Program-made: the position numbers and the translations under genes
Part shown: piece after piece, positions 1 through 20,840 of the stretch
How positions within the stretch are numbered: position 1 is the first letter of the stretch
Layout: every line of letters starts with the position of its first letter
The notes under the pieces: model-generated
The model's input: the letters and a program-made list of their open reading frames with translations, nothing else
Databases searched by the model: none
What the model was told of the DNA's origin: nothing
IMG/VR virus record: IMGVR_UViG_3300017938_000005
Source of the DNA: a virus
Lineage: Duplodnaviria; Heunggongvirae; Uroviricota; Caudoviricetes
Length of the DNA stretch: 20,840 bases
Strand: one strand, 5' to 3'

Positions 1-132
1 AACGTCACGACGGGGTACGAGGTGTGGACGGACGCGCAGCTCTCGAAACGCGCGCACGATCTCGCGTACGAGCTTCGCTTGGTCGACGAAGAGATGGTGC
101 GGCGCGCTGAGAAACTGGAAAAACGGGAGTGA
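1..132 (+). CDS. Hypothetical protein, 3' fragment (runs off left edge)
   Basis: Frame 1 is open from base 1 (NVTTGYEVW...KLEKRE) to TGA 130-132, which overlaps the next GTG (GTGA). Confidence 0.55.
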   Translation, partial: NVTTGYEVWTDAQLSKRAHDLAYELRLVDEEMVRRAEKLEKRE

Positions 133-344
133 GCGTGGAGGGCGAAAAGATGACGGTGGAAGATGACGGGTTCGAGGTGACCGTGAACGACCGTGATCCG
201 TCCAACGTGCAGCTCCGCGCGGGCTACCTCGCGAGCATGGCCATGAAGCTTCCACCCGGCGACGACCGTACGTTCTTGATGAAAGCCTCACGTTCGCTCC
301 GGGCGTACGCGGATTTGCTTCTCGAAGAGCGAAGCACACGCTAG
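129..344 (+). CDS. Hypothetical protein (71 aa)
   Basis: GTGA overlap with upstream ORF; GC-rich third codon positions; protein-like composition. Confidence 0.7.
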   Translation: MSVEGEKMTVEDDGFEVTVNDRDPSNVQLRAGYLASMAMKLPPGDDRTFLMKASRSLRAYADLLLEERSTR

Positions 345-356
345 ACGAAGGACGCC

Positions 357-998
357 GTGAGAGCCGCACGCATGCATCCGCCGCGCTCGACGGAGCCTGG
401 GACTCCGGGAGGCAGACACGCGCGCCGGTGTCGCGAGCTGGGCATCTGCTATCGCTGCGGCAAGCGTGCGGTGCCGAACACGTCGCTCTGCGCGGCGCAC
501 CGTAAAGAGGTGAACCAAAAAACGCTCAAGCGTTACGCTCGCGCCCGTCGGCTCAAGATCTGCTGGCGATGCGGCAGGCCTGCCAAAGTTTCCATGCTCT
601 GCGCGAAGCATCAGCGTGATCAGCGTAAGCAGCAGAAACGTGATCGCGACCGCCGGCGCGCCCGCAAGCCATGCAGGGTCTGCGGCAGACTCGGTCATGC
701 GTCTCCCGATCACAAGAAGCTTAGACTCTGCGTCGATTGCGGGGAGCCGGCGACCGCGAAGGTGAGTGGAGCGCGCGTGTGTGGCGCTCATCGCATGATA
801 CGGCGTGCCGTCGAGCGTGAGCGAGAAGCGATACAGCGCAAACAGGCCATCGCGAAAGGTTTCTGCGGTCGATGCAAAAGCCGACCGATCGCGCCGGACT
901 CCAGCTCGCGGTGCGTCCAGTGCCTCGCCTACAATCGCCAATACATGGCGAACATCTACGATCCACGTCGTCGTGCCGGCAAAGCTGAGGACGTGTAA
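357..998 (+). CDS. Basic Cys/His-rich protein with five tandem putative zinc-binding modules (213 aa)
   Basis: CYRCG..CAAH, CWRCG..CAKH, CRVCGRLGH..H, CVDCG..CGAH and CGRC..CVQC joined by Arg/Lys-rich helices; AAGGA upstream of the GTG. Confidence 0.8.
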   Translation: MRAARMHPPRSTEPGTPGGRHARRCRELGICYRCGKRAVPNTSLCAAHRKEVNQKTLKRYARARRLKICWRCGRPAKVSMLCAKHQRDQRKQQKRDRDRRRARKPCRVCGRLGHASPDHKKLRLCVDCGEPATAKVSGARVCGAHRMIRRAVEREREAIQRKQAIAKGFCGRCKSRPIAPDSSSRCVQCLAYNRQYMANIYDPRRRAGKAEDV

Positions 999-1027
999 GA
1001 TCGGACTTGGGTCCGGAAACGGATCCA

Positions 1028-1077
1028 GCGCGCCCGTGGTCGTGACTCCCCCCTTCACTCCTCGGGCGCGCCTTTTT
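1028..1077 (+). terminator. Putative intrinsic terminator
   Basis: GCGCGCCCG (1028-1036) pairs with CGGGCGCGC (1063-1071), inner GTGA/TCAC stem, then TTTTT (1073-1077); lies between convergent genes. Confidence 0.6.
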
Positions 1078-1081
1078 CAAA

Positions 1082-1393
1082 TCAGCGGATCACATCTTCG
1101 GGGACAGCGGCACCCTCGTCGACCGTTCCGCCGCGCGCCTTGCTGAATTTTCCGAGTTCGGCGGCGAGGAGCTTTTGGACGCGCGCGATCATCTCGTCGT
1201 CCAAGCGCGGCTCCGCGAAGAGCTGGTACTGCGACTCGGTCGCGCTCATCGGCTTGAGCGTGAGTCGGAGGCGCCCGCGCGTGAGCGAGAGCTTTTCTTC
1301 GATGCGCCGCGCGATGGCGTCAAGTGGGACTTGGAACGCACGTTTCTGTTTCTTCTGCTGCGCGTTTGCAGCGCGTCGTTCGTGTCGATTCAC
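1082..1393 (-). CDS. Hypothetical protein (103 aa)
   Basis: Start placed at the GTG of VNRHERRAA, 7 nt after a candidate -10 box; the ORF track extends it to 1429. Confidence 0.7.
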   Translation of the reverse strand: MNRHERRAANAQQKKQKRAFQVPLDAIARRIEEKLSLTRGRLRLTLKPMSATESQYQLFAEPRLDDEMIARVQKLLAAELGKFSKARGGTVDEGAAVPEDVIR

Positions 1394-1400
1394 GAAAAAG

Positions 1401-1429
1401 ACCATCCGACGAAAACGGACACAGCGCAA
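1401..1429 (-). promoter_or_regulatory. Candidate sigma70-type promoter, leaderless geometry
   Basis: TTGCGC-N17-GATGGT-N7-GTG(1393); weak -10. Confidence 0.35.
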
Positions 1430-1464
1430 GATCCGACAGGATCGCCTGGACGAGGTACGACCCT

Positions 1465-1493
1465 TTGACGTACATTGGGATCGCGGCTAGAAA
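1465..1493 (+). promoter_or_regulatory. Candidate sigma70-type promoter for the 1648-6866 operon
   Basis: TTGACG(1465-1470)-N17-TAGAAA(1488-1493). Confidence 0.45.
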
Positions 1494-1499
1494 CCTCCG

Positions 1500-1630
1500 C
1501 GGTCCGCAATGTGCACGATGCGTGCTGCGGAGGAGTCGCCAATCGCGCCTCGGCGTGATGGGCGCTCACGGGCGAGTCGTCTAATCCTCCCGGTGTCTCG
1601 GACTTCTCACGACACGCCGGGATTTTTTCT
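1500..1630 (+). ncRNA. Candidate structured leader/attenuator or small RNA ending in a terminator-like hairpin
   Basis: Helices CCGCA/TGCGG, GCACG/CGTGC, TCGCC/GGCGA, CGTGA/TCACG; hairpin 1588-1622 followed by TTTTTTCTT. Confidence 0.4.
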
Positions 1631-1647
1631 TCGCAAAGGTGAGAGCG

Positions 1648-2037
1648 ATGCGGATCATTCACGACGTCCACGGTCCGATGCAGGTCGGTGCGGGGCTCAC
1701 GCCGCTCGCGAGCCCGGACGGCAAGGCTAGGGCCGCCCGCGTCGAGATGCTCGCGTGCGTGGATCCGAATTTCGCGATCTCGTGGCGCGACAGGTTGGCG
1801 GACGACGAGGCGATCTACATCGAGGGTGACGCGGCGTCCGTCGTGCGGATGCTCGAGGACTGGATCGACTTCATCGAGATCGGCGCCCAGGATCTCGTCA
1901 GGGACGGCAAGCTCGATCCCGGGTGGAACGACTTCGACAAACGTTGGGGTCCCTACAGCAAGCACAAAAAGAAAACGAAGAAGGCGAAGACGAAGGCGAA
2001 GAAGACGATGGCAAAGAAGACGAAAGCGAAGAAGTGA
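1648..2037 (+). CDS. Hypothetical protein with Lys/Ala-rich histone-H1-like C-terminal tail (129 aa)
   Basis: AAAGGTGAG upstream of ATG 1648; tail KHKKKTKKAKTKAKKTMAKKTKAKK. Confidence 0.75.
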   Translation: MRIIHDVHGPMQVGAGLTPLASPDGKARAARVEMLACVDPNFAISWRDRLADDEAIYIEGDAASVVRMLEDWIDFIEIGAQDLVRDGKLDPGWNDFDKRWGPYSKHKKKTKKAKTKAKKTMAKKTKAKK

Positions 2038-2324
2038 AGACGCACGAAGAAATGCCTGCGCTCGCCAAAGAAGCGCACTTCCTCCTCGAAGGACGACCTC
2101 CCAAGCCGGAAATCACGTCCCTCATCGTTGCATGTGCCCTGCTCACGGCGGCGACGATGGACGCGAAGAAGCTTGGATGGTTAGACGGGCTCTGCCTCGT
2201 GATGGCGCTTGGTAATTTGGCGCTTTATCTTTATCGCTGGTGGCGTGATCGGGTTTGGACGCGGCGCAGGAACGCCTACGTGAAGCGCATCCACGAGATG
2301 CAAGAAGGAGCCGTCGATGGTTGA
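2034..2324 (+). CDS. Small membrane protein, two predicted TM helices (96 aa)
   Basis: GTGA overlap; hydrophobic ITSLIVACALLTAA and LDGLCLVMALGNLALYLY followed by a basic stretch. The ORF-track extension to 1923 is the shifted frame of the upstream Lys-rich tail. Confidence 0.75.
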   Translation: MKTHEEMPALAKEAHFLLEGRPPKPEITSLIVACALLTAATMDAKKLGWLDGLCLVMALGNLALYLYRWWRDRVWTRRRNAYVKRIHEMQEGAVDG

Positions 2325-3504
2325 GGAGCAGAGGGTGGCAGAGACGGCGAAGATGTACGAGCCTTGCGTCGCGTGCAGCGTCGCGCGGGCGAAGGGCGAC
2401 TTCGAAGAGGCTGTCTCGTGCCGCTCGTGCAAGGGCACGGGCATCCTGCGCACGCGCGAGAGCTGGGTCTGCAACGCGTGCGGCGGGTGCCTTTGCCCCG
2501 GCGATTCAGCCGACCATGAGAGCCCGCACGGGCTCGTCGAGGCCAAGGTCTCGGGCGGTTACAGCTCGCCGGCGCTCTCGGACTGCACGAACTATGCGTT
2601 CTCGATCTGCGAGGCGTGCCTCCGGAAAATCTTCGACGGATTCGCGGTGAAACCGAAGATCAGCGACTACATGATCGGCGTGGCGGGTGGCGACGACGTC
2701 GCGACGGACGAGCAGTACGAAGAGGAAGCGGCGGCGCGGAAGAAAGCGGACGAGGAGAATGAGGCGAGCAAGGCGGAGTTCTTCAAGCTCTACGGCGAGG
2801 CCCGCTGCGCGGACCACGACAAGGACCCCGCGAGTAAGAACGGCAACGCTCTGAAGGAATATTGCATGCGTGAGGGTGCGGGGCGCCTCCTCTACGAGAA
2901 CAGCGACTGGCCCTACAGCAAGCGCTGGCTCTGCTCGCGCCATCTCCGCGACGCGTTCGTCAGCCGGGGGACGACGATCGAGATCCCGGGACGCGAGCCC
3001 CTCACGTGGGCCGCGCGATCGAAGAGGGGCCTCGAGCTGCTCGCCGAATTCCGCGGAGGCAATAGCCCCGTCGTCTCGTCCGAGGAAGACGCTGCCATCG
3101 CGATCTCGACGCTCTTCCCGCTCCTCATGTCGAAGAAACACGGTGGTCATGCCGCTCGTGAGCTTGCACGAATCTCGCTCGCACGGCCTCAGCCCGCAAA
3201 AAGTTGGGCGTCCCATCGCATCCCGCTGAGCTTTCGCCCCGGTCATGATGAAATCGCTCGCCTCGTGAACGATTGGCTTACATGGGGCAAGCAGCAAGAA
3301 TACGACAACGCCGTCGCGACGGCGTTTCTCCGATATGACGCGCGAACGATCTGGGACGACGGTGACGACGCGCGAAACATGCCTGTCGACGGCATGACCG
3401 ACGAAGAAGCCGAAGCGGCCCAGGCCAAAGACGAAGCCGATCGGGAGGCGCTTTTCGCGATGATGGCCGAACGGGACGCGCGAAAAGGGGAGTGGGAGGA
3501 GTGA
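2317..3504 (+). CDS. Multi-zinc-motif hypothetical protein (395 aa)
   Basis: AAGGAG SD; CVAC, DnaJ-like CRSCKGTG, CNACGG, GGYSS..D..Y.F.ICEAC, acidic linker and acidic C-terminus. Confidence 0.85.
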   Translation: MVEEQRVAETAKMYEPCVACSVARAKGDFEEAVSCRSCKGTGILRTRESWVCNACGGCLCPGDSADHESPHGLVEAKVSGGYSSPALSDCTNYAFSICEACLRKIFDGFAVKPKISDYMIGVAGGDDVATDEQYEEEAAARKKADEENEASKAEFFKLYGEARCADHDKDPASKNGNALKEYCMREGAGRLLYENSDWPYSKRWLCSRHLRDAFVSRGTTIEIPGREPLTWAARSKRGLELLAEFRGGNSPVVSSEEDAAIAISTLFPLLMSKKHGGHAARELARISLARPQPAKSWASHRIPLSFRPGHDEIARLVNDWLTWGKQQEYDNAVATAFLRYDARTIWDDGDDARNMPVDGMTDEEAEAAQAKDEADREALFAMMAERDARKGEWEE

Positions 3505-3797
3505 ATTTCAACGATCGCATCCACGTCGAAACCCGTTCGAACGGGATGCTTCGTTGCGAGGCCGCGCGGCGCGAGGGCGGCCCGTGCGGCAAGCAGCTCG
3601 AATATGATCTCGCGCGCCGCGGCAACGAGGTTCTCGAGTCCGACGGACGCATGGTTGCGAGGGATGTCGAGTACATCACGAGGACGATCGCTGCGAACGC
3701 CGCGGTCGGTGGCTGGTCGATGATCGAAGATGAGCGCGGCTTCTACATCGTGTGCCCATCCTGTCATCGTCGTGAGCGATGGGTGAAAAAAGAATGA
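3501..3797 (+). CDS. Hypothetical protein with split Cys zinc motif (98 aa)
   Basis: GTGA overlap upstream, ATGA overlap downstream; C..C plus CPSCH. Confidence 0.75.
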   Translation: MNFNDRIHVETRSNGMLRCEAARREGGPCGKQLEYDLARRGNEVLESDGRMVARDVEYITRTIAANAAVGGWSMIEDERGFYIVCPSCHRRERWVKKE

Positions 3798-5533
3798 AAA
3801 AGCTCCACATCTCCACGGCCCTGTCGCTCCCACTCGAGGCGATCACGGAGACCATCGCGATTCTCGGCATCCGCGGTTCGGGCAAAACGAACACGTGTGT
3901 CGTCCTCACCGAGGAGCTGCTCGACGCCGGGCAGCAGGTCGTCATCATCGACCCAACCGACGTCTGGTGGGGGCTCAAGTCATCGAAGAACGGCAAGGAG
4001 GCCGGTTACCCCGTCATCGTCTTCGGCGGCAGGCACGGCGACGTCCCGCTCACGGCGGCCGATGGTGCGACGGTCGCGGACTTCATCGTCGAGGAGCGCC
4101 TGCCGGCGATCCTGTCGCTCCGGCACTTCGAGTCGCAGGGCGACATGCGTCGCTTCGTGACGGATTTCGCGCGGAGGCTCTACCACAGGAAGGGCGAGGA
4201 GGGCCGCGACACGCCGATGCTGCTCGCCATCGACGAGGGACATCTTTTCGTCCCGCAGCGGGTGACCGGGGCGGAAGCGCAGATGGTCGGCGCGATCCAG
4301 AAACTTGTTCGCCAAGGACGGACGAGCGGCATCGGGGTCGCCGTCATCGACCAGCGCGCGGCGTCGGTCAACAAAGATATTTTGACACAACTCGAGCTTC
4401 TCATCTGCCACCGCACAAGCTCGCCGCAAGATCGCAAAGCGCTCGAAGGGTGGATCGAGCAGCACGACACGGCCGACCAGAAAGAGACGTTCTTGGCGCG
4501 CTTACCGGAACTCGCCCGCGGCGTCGCGTGGTGCTGGTCGCCCGGTTGGCTCGACATCTTCAAAGAGGTGCCCGTCCGCGAGCGCCGGACCTTCGACTCG
4601 TCGGCGACGCCGAAGGCCGGCGAGAAGCGCGTGACTCCCACGACGCTCGCGCACGTGGACCTCGACGCGCTCAAAAAGAAGATGGCGGACGCGATCGAGA
4701 AGGCGAGCGCCGAGGATCCGAAGGTGCTTCGCACGCGGATCGCGCAGCTCGAGCGGCAGCTCGCGAGCCGCGTCGCCGAGGTGAAGCTCGCGCCGCCGCC
4801 CGAGAAGCCGCTCCTCAGTCGCACCGAGGCAGAATGGGCAAAAGAGCAACTCGAGACGCTCGAGAAAATGCGAATCGAGGTCTTCAACAGCGCCGAGGAG
4901 ATCCACAACAAGATCCTCGAGACCAACACCTACCTGCTCAAGGCGCTCAAGCGTTGGCTCGAGGGCGGCCCGACGTCCGCTCAAATGGAGCACGCGAACG
5001 GCGCCGCGAAGAAGAAGTTCGCCAAGGAGTATGAAGTCGTTTATCCGGTGAAACCGGCGAAGGCTGAATCTTCGATCGCCGGGATGAGCCCGATCGAGAA
5101 GAAGATCCTCTGCACCCTCGCCGCGGGTGGTGCGATGAACCGGAAGAAGCTTGCGATCTGGACCGGTTACTCGCACACGAGCGGATCATTCGGTCAAGCG
5201 CTTGCGGATCTGCGGGCGGCGGGAGACATCGTCGGGTCGTCCAAGGAGTTTGCGATCACGACCGAAGGACATGCGAAGGTCGCCGGCTACGTCGAGAAGC
5301 TCCCGAAGGGAGAAGCGCTCCTCGAGTGGTGGATCGGTAAGCGCCCGGCCAGCGACGGGCTCGTCCTGCGCGCTCTCTGGCGCGCCGGCCCGATGTCGCG
5401 CGAGGACATCGCCTCGGCGATCAAACGTTCGAACACGTCGGGGTCGTACGGGCAGACGCTCGCGGATCTCCGCGCGCTCGGACTCATCGACGGGTCTGCG
5501 AAGGCCTACAGCCTTTCGCCCGAACTTCAGTAA
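3794..5533 (+). CDS. HerA/FtsK-superfamily (DUF87-like) P-loop ATPase with central coiled coil and two C-terminal winged-helix repeats (579 aa)
   Basis: Walker A GIRGSGKT, VIIDP strand, Walker B LLAIDEGH, RQGRTSG arginine-finger region, DQR motif; ATGA overlap sets start at 3794. Confidence 0.9.
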   Translation: MKKLHISTALSLPLEAITETIAILGIRGSGKTNTCVVLTEELLDAGQQVVIIDPTDVWWGLKSSKNGKEAGYPVIVFGGRHGDVPLTAADGATVADFIVEERLPAILSLRHFESQGDMRRFVTDFARRLYHRKGEEGRDTPMLLAIDEGHLFVPQRVTGAEAQMVGAIQKLVRQGRTSGIGVAVIDQRAASVNKDILTQLELLICHRTSSPQDRKALEGWIEQHDTADQKETFLARLPELARGVAWCWSPGWLDIFKEVPVRERRTFDSSATPKAGEKRVTPTTLAHVDLDALKKKMADAIEKASAEDPKVLRTRIAQLERQLASRVAEVKLAPPPEKPLLSRTEAEWAKEQLETLEKMRIEVFNSAEEIHNKILETNTYLLKALKRWLEGGPTSAQMEHANGAAKKKFAKEYEVVYPVKPAKAESSIAGMSPIEKKILCTLAAGGAMNRKKLAIWTGYSHTSGSFGQALADLRAAGDIVGSSKEFAITTEGHAKVAGYVEKLPKGEALLEWWIGKRPASDGLVLRALWRAGPMSREDIASAIKRSNTSGSYGQTLADLRALGLIDGSAKAYSLSPELQ

Positions 5534-5560
5534 AATGAAAGCGATGAAACGAGATTGACC

Positions 5561-5761
5561 ATGATTCGAATTCGGCCCTTCGACGTCGGTGTCTTTTCGG
5601 GCGAACAGATCGGTGAGCCCGGTAAGTGGCTCGTCGCCCTCGGTCGCGATGCAGTCGGTGGCGTCGTCATCGCGGAAGCGGACAGCGCACAAGAGGCGAC
5701 ACGCTTCCTTCACGACTTCGTCGCGGCGATCAAAGCCTCCCGCGCGAAGGGGGCCTCATGA
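5561..5761 (+). CDS. Hypothetical protein (66 aa)
   Basis: ATG 5561 (TTG 5555 alternative); ATGA overlap with next gene. Confidence 0.7.
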   Translation: MIRIRPFDVGVFSGEQIGEPGKWLVALGRDAVGGVVIAEADSAQEATRFLHDFVAAIKASRAKGAS

Positions 5762-6072
5762 TCGAAGATGGGAAAATGAAGCCCATGATCGAAGACGTGA
5801 AAGTGTTTGACGGCCGCGTCGAAGGGTTTGATAAGGACAAGCCCTTCTACATCGTGCGTTTTGGGGACGACGAGCATGCTCATCAGGCACGTGTTCTCAC
5901 TGCGTGGCTCGTGGATTCGTCCACGCCTGCGGTGTGCGCGACGATGGCCGGGGACGGCAAGCGCCACGTCTTCCGCAATGTGAACAGCACGGAAACGTCG
6001 TGTGGCGAAAACCTCACGCATGCCGAAGTGCCCGATGGACCCCTCTGTCCGAAGTGCTTCATCACCAGCTAA
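5758..6072 (+). CDS. Hypothetical protein with C-terminal H/C..CxxC zinc motif (104 aa)
   Basis: ATGA overlap; RHVF..SCG..LCPKC. Confidence 0.75.
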   Translation: MIEDGKMKPMIEDVKVFDGRVEGFDKDKPFYIVRFGDDEHAHQARVLTAWLVDSSTPAVCATMAGDGKRHVFRNVNSTETSCGENLTHAEVPDGPLCPKCFITS

Positions 6073-8507: not shown

Positions 8508-10043
8508 TCACCCTTTCACGGTGCAGAGCGGGAAGAGCTTCGCCACACGCTGCGCAACGTGCGCGTCCACGACAGAGTCGATGACGGGCTCGATGGGTTT
8601 ATAGGCGTAAGGCGCCTCCTCCATCATGCGCTTCTCGTATTTATCGAGAATGTCTTTCCTCATTCGCATCATCGGCGACTTCGGATCGACGGGCCCGACG
8701 ATGCGGAGGCGCTCCACGGATTCGAGGTACTCGGAGCGCGGAACATGTGCCGCTTTTCCGCGTGAGAGACTCCGGCCGGCGCCGTGACACGCGCTTGAGA
8801 GTGCTTCATCGTTCTCCTCGCCCGCGAGAAGGTAGCTCGGCGCGCCCATGGACCCCGGGATGATGACAGGCTTGCCGAGCCACTCGGAACCTTGGCCGTC
8901 GTCCGTTGGCCCGTGCGCCGGGGTTACGCCTTTGCGATGGAGGCACGACTCGTTGTCCTTGAAGACGAGGTTGTGGGGCGCGTCGTAAACGAGCCGCGCA
9001 TCGATACTGAGCCCTGTCGCCTCTTCGATGGCGCGAAGAGCCATGAGACCCAAAAAGAGCCGGTTCGCGAAGGCGAAGTTCGCAGCGTTCCCCATCCCGT
9101 CGAGATAGAAGAGTCCCTCTTCGCATCTCGGTCCTTCCGTCGGCAGTGGGAAGAAGCCGCCTTTCGGCGACGCGATGTCGCTCGGGAAGATCTCGCGCGC
9201 GCGATCCATAAAGTGCCCACCGACAGCGTGCCCGATCCCGACGGAGCCCGAGTGCACCATGATGGCGACGTTGCCGCGGACGAGGTTCCACGCGCGAGCC
9301 GCGTGGCCCTCGTAGAGCGCGTCGATGCGCTGGATCTCGACGAAGTGATTGCCGCCGCCGACGCATCCGATCTGCGGGTCGCGGCCGTCGATGTTGCCCG
9401 ACGAGCGGATGAAGTTCTCGAACCCGAAGAGTCTCCTTGTCGGAAGGATCCCGCCGCCGTGCACGTGGTGGACGTCATCCCGCTGCGACTTCGGATCGAA
9501 GCGCTGCCAGATCCCTCGCGTGAGATTGTCGTCCGACGTGTCCACAAGACCTGGTAGGCCATGACGGAGGACCGCTTCGCGCTGCCGCGGCGACATCGGG
9601 ATGTCGCGTTCGCCCTCGAAGAAGATCGCGCGGAGACGCTTCTGGATCGCGGGCCAGTGCGGCTCGAGGGACTCGGCCGGCAGATCGGTCGCGAGGAGCC
9701 GCATCCCGCAGCAGACGTCGTTGCCAATCGCTTGCGGGATGACGACGTTCTTTGCCTGAACCACCGTGCCGACGGGAATGCCCGAGCCTTTGTGAAAGTC
9801 CGGCGTGAGCACGACGCGTTCGATCGCGGGCGCGGCGTCGCCGAAGAACGGATCGCCGGCGCCGCGCGTGTCCCGCTCACGAACTTCTCGGATCGCGCGG
9901 GCCACGTCGGCGAACTCGATGAGCTGCTCGAATGCGTCGGCCTCCACGGAGACCGACTCGTTCGCGAAAAGCTTGATGTCGATGTCCGGATGAAGGACGC
10001 GCACGACCGAGGGCGTCTCGCGGTGAAGGAAGGGAAAGCTCAA
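8508..10043 (-). CDS. rtcB: RtcB family 3'-phosphate/2',3'-cyclic-phosphate RNA ligase (511 aa)
   Basis: PDFHKG, GIPVG, GNDVCCG, GGGNHF, HSGS, HN, HRKG, IPGSMG, HGAGR (guanylylated His motif), EEAP.AYK and terminal VKG all present; TTG start overlaps upstream TGA. Confidence 0.97.
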   Translation of the reverse strand: MSFPFLHRETPSVVRVLHPDIDIKLFANESVSVEADAFEQLIEFADVARAIREVRERDTRGAGDPFFGDAAPAIERVVLTPDFHKGSGIPVGTVVQAKNVVIPQAIGNDVCCGMRLLATDLPAESLEPHWPAIQKRLRAIFFEGERDIPMSPRQREAVLRHGLPGLVDTSDDNLTRGIWQRFDPKSQRDDVHHVHGGGILPTRRLFGFENFIRSSGNIDGRDPQIGCVGGGNHFVEIQRIDALYEGHAARAWNLVRGNVAIMVHSGSVGIGHAVGGHFMDRAREIFPSDIASPKGGFFPLPTEGPRCEEGLFYLDGMGNAANFAFANRLFLGLMALRAIEEATGLSIDARLVYDAPHNLVFKDNESCLHRKGVTPAHGPTDDGQGSEWLGKPVIIPGSMGAPSYLLAGEENDEALSSACHGAGRSLSRGKAAHVPRSEYLESVERLRIVGPVDPKSPMMRMRKDILDKYEKRMMEEAPYAYKPIEPVIDSVVDAHVAQRVAKLFPLCTVKG

Positions 10044-19842: not shown

Positions 19843-20175
19843 TTACGAAGCGCCTCCGGTCTTTTTCTCCTTCTCCACCTCCGCCTCCGCGAGCAAAATG
19901 TGTCGAAGCTCGTCGAGCCGCACGAGCGCGATCTCGAGCTTCGCGGCGCGGGCCGCGTCCACGTGCTCCGGCGGCGCGGGCTTCGCGTCCACCGGTGCGC
20001 GGCCGAAGGCGGCGAGGAAGTGCGCGACGTCGCCGAAGACTTCCGCGATGAGCTTCGATTCGGCACGCTTGTCGTGACCCGGCGCGAAGAAGGAGCCGAG
20101 GGGCTTTGCCCGATGAAGGCGCGATGCCCGACGAATAGGATCTCTGCCCGACGATCCGCCGAAAAATTTTGACAA
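19843..20175 (-). CDS. Hypothetical protein, start uncertain (possibly 5'-degenerate)
   Basis: C-terminal ~75 aa (AESKLIAEVFGD...KKTGGAS) look coding, but there is no good start or SD; TTG 20175 is the nearest upstream in-frame start. Confidence 0.45.
   Translation of the reverse strand: MSKFFGGSSGRDPIRRASRLHRAKPLGSFFAPGHDKRAESKLIAEVFGDVAHFLAAFGRAPVDAKPAPPEHVDAARAAKLEIALVRLDELRHILLAEAEVEKEKKTGGAS
20107..20154. repeat. Three direct repeats TGCCCGAYGA
   Basis: At 20107, 20125 and 20145 (spacings 18 and 20), followed by GAAAAATTTTGACAA. Confidence 0.6.
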
Positions 20176-20326
20176 CCAACTACGACAGCAGGAAGCTCTC
20201 TGTGCTGGCGCGTACAGGCAATGGGTGTGTCTGCCACGCGGCGGTCGATCGTCGTCTACACGTAAGTCGGAACGGACGATCGTGACCCGGTATGAGGCAC
20301 CCCACCATGAGTCGCAAATAGCAAGA

Positions 20327-20363
20327 AGCCTCAGCACGGATAGCCGTCCGTATCGCTGAGGCT
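20327..20363 (-). terminator. Strong hairpin, possible minus-strand intrinsic terminator
   Basis: AGCCTCAGC-ACGGA / TCCGT-ATC-GCTGAGGCT (14 bp with a 3-nt bulge); on the minus strand followed by TCTTGCTATTT. Confidence 0.45.
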
Positions 20364-20480
20364 CTCACTTCTGCACGTCTTGGTGGCGCTTCGTTCCCGA
20401 CGCGTCGATGGGAAGTATCCATCGGCCCGCGATGACGCGCAAGGGTCCCGTTTTGTCTGCGTGAACCAACGGAGGCAACC

Positions 20481-20564
20481 ATGCCGTCCTTGCTCGCGGG
20501 CTTCGTCGCGCCGATCGTCGCCAAACTGCGTCGATGGGCGGCGAAAGCCCTTCCATGTCACTGA
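20481..20564 (+). CDS. 27-aa cationic amphipathic peptide (not in the ORF track), possible type I toxin-like microprotein
   Basis: GGAGG SD 5 nt before ATG; MPSLLAGFVAPIVAKLRRWAAKALPCH; first 14 codons all end in G/C. Confidence 0.6.
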   Translation: MPSLLAGFVAPIVAKLRRWAAKALPCH

Positions 20565-20565
20565 T

Positions 20566-20754
20566 TTAGGCGCGCTCGCCTCGTAGACGCTTCGCCTCCT
20601 TGAGGCTCGTCGAGAGGAGGAACGCGGACAAGCCGATGCCGAGCGACTCGGCGGCCTCCGAGAGCGTCCGCTTCTGCTCCTCCGTAACCCGGAGGTGGAT
20701 GCTGATGTCCTTGGTGACGTCCTTCCTTCGCTCCTTCGGCTTTCTCGCGGCCAT
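20566..20754 (-). CDS. Ribbon-helix-helix protein, DUF1778/TacA-antitoxin-like (62 aa)
   Basis: ISIHLRV strand, then TEEQKRTLSEAA and GIGLSAFLLSTSLKEA helices. Confidence 0.85.
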   Translation of the reverse strand: MAARKPKERRKDVTKDISIHLRVTEEQKRTLSEAAESLGIGLSAFLLSTSLKEAKRLRGERA

Positions 20755-20759
20755 GGGCA

Positions 20760-20820
20760 CTTGTAGCCACGTTAGGGTCAGGCGTCAACCCGTTGCCTGT
20801 TGCCCTAACGTGGCTACATT
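20760..20820. promoter_or_regulatory. Symmetric divergent promoters within a perfect 16-bp inverted repeat (candidate operator)
   Basis: TGTAGCCACGTTAGGG (20762-20777) and CCCTAACGTGGCTACA (20803-20818), 25-nt spacer; minus TTGACG-N17-TACAAG, plus TTGCCT-N16-TACATT. Confidence 0.7.
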
Positions 20821-20827
20821 ACGAATC

Positions 20828-20840
20828 ATGGACGCCGCAC
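20828..20840 (+). CDS. Probable start of a divergent gene (MDAA..., runs off right edge)
   Basis: ATG 7 nt after TACATT, matching the leaderless pattern; only 4 codons visible. Confidence 0.4.

Follow-up and report, generated by a model that had tools for sequence, protein, structure and literature searches.

We analyzed a 385-nt stretch (positions 20180-20564) of viral DNA from the class Caudoviricetes (IMG/VR record IMGVR_UViG_3300017938_000005), of which 20,840 nucleotides (nt), hereafter the window, were available. A preliminary description had taken this stretch for a hidden cationic peptide behind a leader that sequesters its Shine-Dalgarno sequence (SD), i.e., for a candidate type I-like toxin module. 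We read it instead as a small-protein gene, complete with its promoter and a folded leader of ~277 nt, that converges on a ribbon-helix-helix (RHH) gene, both inside a discrete cassette that usually adjoins an IS5-like transposase gene with SWIM and DDE domains; this is our preferred interpretation, held tentatively and with slightly less than even confidence. The small-protein gene (25-30 aa, no family) is missing from the gene calls of related contigs, and its support comes from comparison between copies, beyond the length of the open reading frame (ORF). The proposed parts of the flagged stretch are as follows:

20160-20197, plus strand: candidate promoter of the small-protein gene, as read from its sequence, with an A/T tract, a -35 hexamer TTGACA (20169-20174), a 17-nt spacer and a weak -10 hexamer GAAGCT (20192-20197)
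20204-20480, plus strand: structured 5' leader of ~277 nt, with the CGATCGTC/GACGATCG hairpin (20247-20282), a mini-ORF, conserved islands and the SD
20481-20564, plus strand: small-protein gene, 27 codons plus stop, with GGAGG (20471-20475)-N5-ATG (20481)

The small-protein gene and its cassette

The cassette is rare: five distinct copies were located via homologues of the RHH protein, and they fall into two subgroups. Subgroup A comprises the window, L011 (89% amino acid identity in the RHH protein) and L012 (81%), while subgroup B comprises L013 (68%) and L015 (66%; a 218-kb contig). A further contig, L014, represents the same genome as the window (1 mismatch in 3272 nt), reaches 815 nt further and was counted with the window, not as a separate copy. 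The small ORF was kept in 5/5 copies at 25-30 codons, each with an ATG and an SD (GGAGG or AAGGAG), and its length differences were all in frame. Synonymous sites of the RHH gene are saturated between the subgroups (synonymous divergence, dS, of 1.3-2.2), yet the ATG, the SD and the core pattern of the small protein, F-V-x-P-h-h-x-[K/R]-x-R-x-W-(3 or 4 x)-A-L, persist. Within subgroup A, the ratio of nonsynonymous to synonymous divergence (dN/dS) of the small ORF was 0.23-0.67. The sole difference between the window and L014 is a C to T change at 20479, two nt before the ATG of the small ORF, in the spacer between SD and start.

To this comparison we added a substitution-permutation test, in which the observed substitutions were kept and re-dealt over sites with the same starting base, and the conservativeness of the changes at the protein level was scored in all six frames. 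The annotated frame gave z values of 3.2, 3.1 and 2.1 (P = 0.0002, 0.0006 and 0.022), while the other five frames showed no protein-level conservation; comparisons across the subgroups gave P ~0.01. Together, these comparisons indicate that the 27-codon ORF, put forward as a candidate in the preliminary description, is a genuine, conserved and previously unannotated coding gene.

The cassette measures ~720 bp (20099-20818). Homology among the copies starts exactly at GGGCTTTGCCC (window 20099), as seen for L013 versus L015 and for both versus the window, and it stops at the outer arm of a 16-bp inverted repeat (~20818), which is where homology with L011 ends. Since these boundaries are sharp and the flanks differ from copy to copy, the cassette is a discrete unit. 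Its left end is built as follows:

20096-20154, plus strand: left end of the cassette, with a GGGC-AAA-GCCC boundary hairpin and then three TGCCCGAYGA direct repeats, at 20107, 20125 and 20145

The boundary hairpin is terminator-like on the minus strand (20113-20096). TGCCCGAYGA has six exact matches in the window, compared to 0.35 expected, and three of them are clustered at the left end; this triplet, with 18-20-bp spacing, lies upstream of the plus-strand promoter candidate and is kept in both subgroups. The other three matches are single plus-strand copies at 9395, 17252 and 19161.

The relatives of the cassette were few. Close RHH homologues came from metagenome assemblies, two of these homologues from JGI metagenomes. 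With the RHH protein as anchor, no relatives were found in IMG/VR or in 185,579 GTDB species genomes, and a DNA similarity search with INPHARED phages and PLSDB plasmids gave no match. A neighboring winged helix-turn-helix protein, used as anchor, led to ten loci, none of them syntenic, and a neighboring 323-aa protein led to none.

As for the surroundings, the window has a G+C content of 62.6%, and its genes include those for a HerA-like ATPase, RtcB and a metallophosphoesterase, together with PHROG matches. G+C by codon position pointed to coding in the RHH gene and in the gene left of the cassette (up to ~20080-20100), and there was no periodicity at third codon positions over ~20100-20560, an interval that looks non-coding except for the small ORF. 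The left-hand ORF (19843-20175, minus strand), for which no family match was found, has no canonical start before the boundary at 20099; its in-frame starts are only TTG at 20175, which lies inside the cassette, or a GTG that would leave 49 aa. The cassette may have been inserted into this ORF or fused onto it.

The folded leader and the antisense overlap

The flagged stretch is more stably folded than dinucleotide shuffles on either strand (z = -3.47 plus, -3.67 minus), as is the segment between the candidate transcription start and the ORF stop (z = -4.5 plus, -3.9 minus). We compared four leaders, those of the window, L011, L013 and L015, and all of them fold better than shuffles, with z from -2.7 to -4.5 on the plus strand and from -2.2 to -3.9 on the minus strand, which agrees with the structured leader described previously. 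The stems reported there, CAGCA/TGCTG, GGCA/TGCC, CGATCGTC/GACGATCG, the one at 20327-20363 and CGATGG/CCATCG, are all where they had been placed, as are GGAGG-N5-ATG and the 27-codon ORF.

The overall architecture of the leader differs between the subgroups, and the islands that survive between them are the 5' segment after the promoter, a hairpin here called H2, GCGCAAGGG (20437-20445), a pyrimidine tract GUUUUGUCU (20450-20458) and the SD. The hairpin has the following form:

20404-20426, plus strand: hairpin H2 (CGATGG/CCATCG), found in all four leaders, an 8-bp stem whose loop, (R)AGUAU, is conserved

Three pairs of H2 vary while the stem is kept, with changes that include A-U to G-C and U-A to A-U. 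All pairs of the hairpin are valid on the plus strand, whereas three would be A-C mismatches on the minus strand; in addition, the long 5' hairpin of subgroup B contains seven G-U pairs. Since the H2 pairs and the G-U pairs are valid on the plus strand only, the structure belongs to the predicted small-protein mRNA. A DNA pattern search that combined H2 with GCGCAAGG returned 34 matches, all without the 5' arm and all attributable to chance.

Whether this structure hides the SD was a central point of the preliminary description, which had paired the SD and start with 20388-20395 and 20381-20384. These segments are complementary on paper, but the pairing is absent from the minimum-free-energy fold, from the centroid and from a two-sequence consensus. 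In the consensus fold, 20388-20395 pairs instead with 20428-20437 around H2, and the SD pairs with GUUUUGUCU, the conserved pyrimidine tract shortly before it, in a stem that has one compensatory change at its base. The SD is mostly paired in the four homologues (probability of being unpaired 0.20-0.44), but shuffling the leader leaves this pairing as strong or strengthens it. Since its pairing is no greater than with shuffled leaders, an SD-sequestering leader is not established. The proposed check by folding and covariation thus gave a divided outcome: H2 covaries in its stem, on the plus strand, but the leader overall is close to neutral and the SD pairing first proposed is not predicted.

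A mini-ORF lies in the leader at 20307-20321. It has five codons including the stop (ATG, nine nt, stop), and this length is constant in the window, L011, L013 and L015, while its inner codons are variable; L015 has TAA as the stop, and the other three copies have TAG. The mini-ORF of subgroup A sits just before the 20327-20363 hairpin, and its AAATAG doubles as the U-tract of the minus-strand terminator. The mini-ORF could be due to chance or be a start-stop element.

Taken on its own, the leader could be the functional unit, a cis-regulatory RNA that senses a ligand, a protein or temperature and gates translation of the small ORF or read-through toward the antisense region of the RHH gene, with the ORF mainly keeping the transcript translated and safe from Rho. 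The significant folding of all four leaders fits this explanation, as do the islands that outlast saturated divergence (H2, whose loop is fixed, as well as GCGCAAGGG and the pyrimidine tract that precedes the SD) and the G-U pairs that mark the plus strand as structured; moreover, in subgroup B, pairing with the pyrimidine tract might be contested between the SD and an AAGGG element. However, Rfam returned no relevant family, either at gathering thresholds or at E <= 10 (ARAGORN likewise found no tRNA or tmRNA), most of the leader is neutral, its architecture is not shared by the subgroups, and the protein sequence is under selection, which would be needless in a mere spacer ORF. We therefore regard a purely regulatory leader as improbable and return to the leader as part of a small-protein gene within an antisense arrangement.

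The stop codons of the small ORF and the RHH gene are -2 to +1 nt apart in every copy; in the window, where the RHH stop occupies 20566-20568 on the minus strand, the gap is 1 nt, as first reported. Since the stops are so close, the two mRNAs must overlap as antisense RNAs, with neither ending before it enters the other gene. On the plus strand, no convincing promoter had been recognized initially. We propose TTGACA-17-GAAGCT as a conserved candidate, albeit with a weak -10; the same layout is present in L013 (TTGCGT-17-TAGGTT) and L015 (TTGCGC-17-TAGGTC), where the hexamers are conserved and the spacer is not. On the minus strand, the RHH mRNA would end at the following element:

20327-20363, minus strand: nested hairpin of 35-37 nt that leads, on the minus strand, into UUCUUGCUAUUU (20326-20315); likely the intrinsic terminator of the RHH mRNA

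In L011, the minus-strand tail of this hairpin is UUUUCGCUAUUU; a U-rich tail occurs on the RHH strand only, the tail on the plus strand being poor in U. Over its 35 nt, the hairpin does not differ between the window and L011, while the surrounding leader differs at 21% of sites. The hairpin is thus likely to be the terminator of the RHH mRNA in subgroup A. With the terminator placed here, the 3' region of that mRNA would be ~245 nt long and antisense to the small ORF, its SD and ~150 nt of leader. An RHH transcript running over the ORF, SD and leader as far as this hairpin had already been suggested, and the arrangement of the sequence favors it, there being no room to stop before the ORF and a U-rich tail on the RHH strand only. 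In subgroup B, transcription of the RHH gene may continue as far as the GGGC-AAA-GCCC hairpin that closes the cassette.

The small-protein mRNA may, in turn, end within the RHH gene, at the following site:

20695-20721, plus strand: frozen synonymous stretch in the RHH gene, GAUGUC-CUUGGU-GACGUC, a 6-bp hairpin (20704-20721) that leads into a C/U-rich tail

Among 35 invariant degenerate residues in the five copies, 8/9 invariant codons are at RHH codons 12-20, in a gene whose synonymous divergence is otherwise saturated. The plus-strand hairpin in the RHH gene was scored as terminator-like in L011, L013 and L015. This codon pattern argues that a second function overlaps RHH codons 12-20, and the stretch at 20695-20721 may be the end of the small-protein mRNA.

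The RHH gene, its presumed operator and the transposase

The right half of the cassette contains the RHH gene and its presumed operator, beyond which the transposase gene begins:

20566-20754, minus strand: short RHH gene, 62 aa from ATG 20754 or 64 aa from GTG 20760
20762-20818, no strand assigned: perfect 16-bp inverted repeat with a 25-nt spacer, overlapping the promoters of the RHH gene and the divergent transposase gene at their -35/-10; presumed RHH operator and right end of the cassette
20829-20840, plus strand: start of the divergent SWIM and DDE_Tnp_1 (IS5-like) transposase gene, which runs off the window and was read further in L014, where its product matches SWIM and DDE_Tnp_1

Homologues of the RHH protein begin at the position of ATG 20754. 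The protein matches Pfam TacA1 (PF08681) with 28.3 bits (cut-off 21) over profile positions 2-39 of 80, a NikA-like model with 27.4 bits (cut-off 27) and NCBIfam MobA weakly; the TacA1 and NikA-like matches cover the RHH core only. Its nearest solved structures are DUF1778 antitoxins (PDB 6ajm and 5zgn), which it matches over their N-terminal residues 5-46 only. The protein ends after helix 2 and is without the C-terminal, toxin-neutralizing half of these antitoxins.

The match to TacA1 raises the question of whether the cassette is a decayed type II module, the spacer being the remnant of a GNAT (TacT-like) toxin gene after a DUF1778-like antitoxin and the 27-codon ORF a chance frame. A GNAT toxin gene would have roughly the length of the ~460-nt spacer, and open frames are common at the G+C content of the window. 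Against this, we found downstream on the RHH strand no conserved ORF, no family match and no GNAT toxin gene, and L011 has stops there. Since no RHH-strand frame is kept, the spacer does not appear to be a decayed toxin gene, and this candidate is largely refuted. The RHH protein also has no toxin-binding half, and the plus-strand ORF, alone among the six frames in passing the conservation test, keeps its ATG and SD across saturated divergence. We consider such a decayed module very improbable.

The NikA-like match, just above its cut-off, the weak MobA match and the wealth of inverted repeats in the region would suit an origin of transfer with a NikA/MobA-like accessory protein, in which the inverted repeats serve as relaxosome binding sites. 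However, neither the window nor any related locus carries a relaxase gene, and the neighboring gene encodes a DDE transposase; the inverted repeat extends over promoter hexamers, and the conserved coding ORF accounts for the sequence constraint. An origin of transfer accordingly receives hardly any credence from us, and we continue with the RHH protein as a presumed repressor.

Both arms of the inverted repeat and the TTGAC are conserved in all five copies. The RHH promoter lies within the repeat, with TTGAC and then TACAAG five to six nt before the ATG; since it is so near the start codon, the RHH mRNA is probably leaderless. The wider RHH sequence family has 321 representatives at E <= 0.001. 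More distant IMG/VR relatives of the RHH protein (L050-L053) have no convergent small ORF; for this reason, the gene pairing may be confined to one clade of short RHH proteins. In one of them, a 252-kb IMG/VR contig (L050, 2495-2680), the short RHH gene is followed by DNA that looks non-coding.

The transposase has its best match in an IS5-family model, with a score below that model's cut-off. The divergent SWIM+DDE gene was found in 4/5 copies: the window (via L014), L012, L015 and, in broken form, L013. In the last of these (positions 1-5920), a nest of IS66-type tnpA/tnpB/tnpC and IS21-type istA/istB has split and inverted the SWIM+DDE gene, and the cassette is intact. No terminal inverted repeats that would place the cassette inside an insertion sequence were found, the left-end 18-mer and the operator arm both being unique in L015 and the window. 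The operator shared with the divergent transposase gene points to regulation of the transposon at least as much as to addiction.

These elements can be combined into a proposed mode of action, in which the transcripts, their ends, their mutual repression and the role of the small protein are all predictions from sequence. A dimer of the RHH protein would bind the 16-bp inverted repeat and repress both its own leaderless promoter and the divergent transposase promoter. The RHH mRNA would pass its stop codon and run antisense over the small ORF, the SD and ~150 nt of leader to the 20327-20363 terminator, with a predicted end near 20315-20325, while the small-protein mRNA, starting from ~20204, would be antisense to most of the RHH ORF and might stop at the 20704-20721 hairpin, with a predicted end near 20725-20735. 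The two RNAs could thus share up to ~400 nt of perfect complementarity. With complementarity of that length, expression of either gene should lower that of the other, through duplex cleavage and transcriptional interference by polymerase collision. The outcome would be a two-state switch: in one state, RHH protein is present, the transposase is off and little small protein is made; in the other, small protein is made, there is less RHH protein and the transposase is derepressed.

Several points weigh against reading the locus as a small-protein gene in such an antisense cassette. A consensus promoter scan found no plus-strand promoter, since the -10 of our candidate, GAAGCT, is weak enough to be missed. 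Subgroup B is without an equivalent of the 20327-20363 terminator, so the extent of the antisense overlap differs between copies. Promoters, transcript ends and overlap are predictions from DNA throughout. The leader as a whole diverges at about the synonymous rate of the RHH gene (0.21 versus 0.19, window versus L011) and, since it evolves nearly neutrally, most of its hairpins may carry no function. Five copies in only two subgroups keep the covariation counts small. In L011, the cassette is without the transposase and another gene stands in its place, so a role in transposition control is not obligatory. Finally, database comparisons of the small protein gave no lead to a binding partner or an activity.

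The toxin question and known systems

The small protein has a hydrophobic N-terminus of 14-15 residues followed by an Arg/Trp-rich segment, in which R-x-R/W-W is found in all copies. Arg/Trp-rich peptides are often membrane-active. No hydrophobic segment of transmembrane length was found: the hydrophobic run leads into charged residues, and the best 19-residue Kyte-Doolittle mean is 0.34-1.19, compared to a usual threshold of ~1.6. The copies of the window, L011 and L012 carry a net charge of +4 or +5, those of L013 and L015 one of -1 or 0, so the positive charge is not conserved; the earlier count of four K/R and no acidic residues holds for the window copy but not for the family. An APXXXG(XXX) motif within a transmembrane helix is common to Fst/Ldr-type toxins, including Fst, Lpt and SprA1 (PMC8309996). 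A loose echo of that motif had been noted in the peptide, but APXXXG is absent: subgroup A has A-P, three hydrophobic residues and then K rather than G, while subgroup B has C-P. Pfam at E <= 10 returned no match for the small protein, neither to Fst nor to Ldr nor to any other toxin family, and the ESM Atlas gave no lead. Judged by these comparisons, a toxin role of the small protein is not indicated.

It is nevertheless worth weighing whether the cassette is a type I-like toxin-antitoxin system, with a membrane-active toxin whose mRNA is silenced by the folded leader and by the antisense 3' part of the RHH mRNA, such that the cassette stabilizes the transposon or phage that carries it. In favor of this, the ORF is a genuine small gene that has a conserved SD behind a long structured leader, and the cis-antisense overlap over ORF, SD and part of the leader is obligatory. 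The hydrophobic N-terminus with its Arg/Trp-rich segment would suit a membrane-active toxin, the C-terminal half in subgroup A is cationic, as in many type I toxins, and small size is no obstacle, since IbsC is still toxic when shortened to 15 residues (PMC8309996). The cassette is also mobile, rare and self-contained, and there is a precedent in that toxin-antitoxin pairs are described as integral parts of Tn3-family transposition modules (bioRxiv 10.1101/848275, PMC7157771). On the other side, the peptide has no window of transmembrane hydropathy, no Fst motif, no family match and, in subgroup B, no positive net charge; occlusion of the SD does not exceed that in shuffled controls, the antisense partner is a protein-coding mRNA and not a small RNA, and an operator common to the RHH and transposase promoters suggests regulation. 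We judge a type I-like system possible but rather unlikely.

In a combined version, the cassette would be a hybrid addiction-and-control module of a kind not described before: the long 3' part of the RHH mRNA would silence a small, convergently encoded toxic peptide while the RHH protein shuts off the IS5-like transposase, such that loss or silencing of the cassette frees both toxin and transposition. We regard this as unlikely. The hybrid type I/type II layout suggested at the outset survives in one respect, the coding RHH mRNA that overlaps as antisense, but not in others, since the RHH protein is without the DUF1778 C-terminal half, no toxin gene follows it and its operator is shared with the transposase. 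We therefore compare the locus with known systems as a small-protein gene convergent on an RHH gene, with the toxin role left conditional.

The closest precedent is Arc, an RHH protein encoded by an insertion sequence, which according to the abstract of its description represses IS605-family promoters (bioRxiv 10.64898/2026.09.24.754181). As far as that account goes, both cases have a very small RHH gene beside a transposase gene and a presumed operator in the intergenic promoter, which would keep expression of the transposon low. The transposase here, however, is of the SWIM+DDE IS5-like type and not TnpA(Y1)/TnpB, and our RHH protein is, by sequence, one of the DUF1778/NikA-like group. The locus here also has a long leader and a convergent small-protein gene, whereas the abstract of the Arc paper and a search for the terms in it yielded neither antisense nor a small ORF.

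The DUF1778 antitoxins (TacA/AtaR/KacA) of GNAT systems are related by sequence in their N-terminal RHH DNA-binding fold. Unlike them, the RHH protein here has only 62-64 aa, the C-terminal toxin-neutralizing half being missing, and no GNAT gene follows. A further parallel is the immI region of phage P22, where arc and mnt, both encoding RHH repressors, are accompanied by overlapping divergent promoters and the antisense RNA sar. The likeness lies in an RHH protein at an operator between divergent promoters, together with a countertranscript from the opposite strand. The difference is that sar is a short non-coding RNA directed against the ribosome-binding site of ant, whereas here two convergent mRNAs face each other and the neighbor is a transposase.

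Among type I loci, convergent RNAs that overlap at their 3' ends are known from par (fst/RNA II) of pAD1, from txpA/RatA and bsrG/SR4 of Bacillus subtilis and from yonT/SR6 (PMC5848175, PMC8309996, PMC4147584). Like these loci, the cassette has a gene of <60 codons, a long folded mRNA leader, a predicted cis antisense RNA over the 3' part and a compact form on mobile DNA. Unlike them, its antisense partner would be the 3' part of the coding RHH mRNA and not a dedicated small RNA; there is no room between the two stops for a separate antisense terminator or promoter, and the only evident antisense transcript is the RHH mRNA. The peptide is also without a transmembrane-length helix or family motif, and its charge is not conserved. 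The predicted overlap, moreover, is far longer (up to ~400 nt) and reciprocal.

The design of the cassette is thus compact, with two protein-coding messages forced to be each other's antisense RNAs. Toxicity of the small protein would make a coding mRNA serve as a type I antitoxin and blur the boundary between type I and type II systems. Should the protein not be toxic, the cassette would still be a candidate control switch for an IS5-like transposase, extending the restraint of insertion sequences by tiny RHH proteins.

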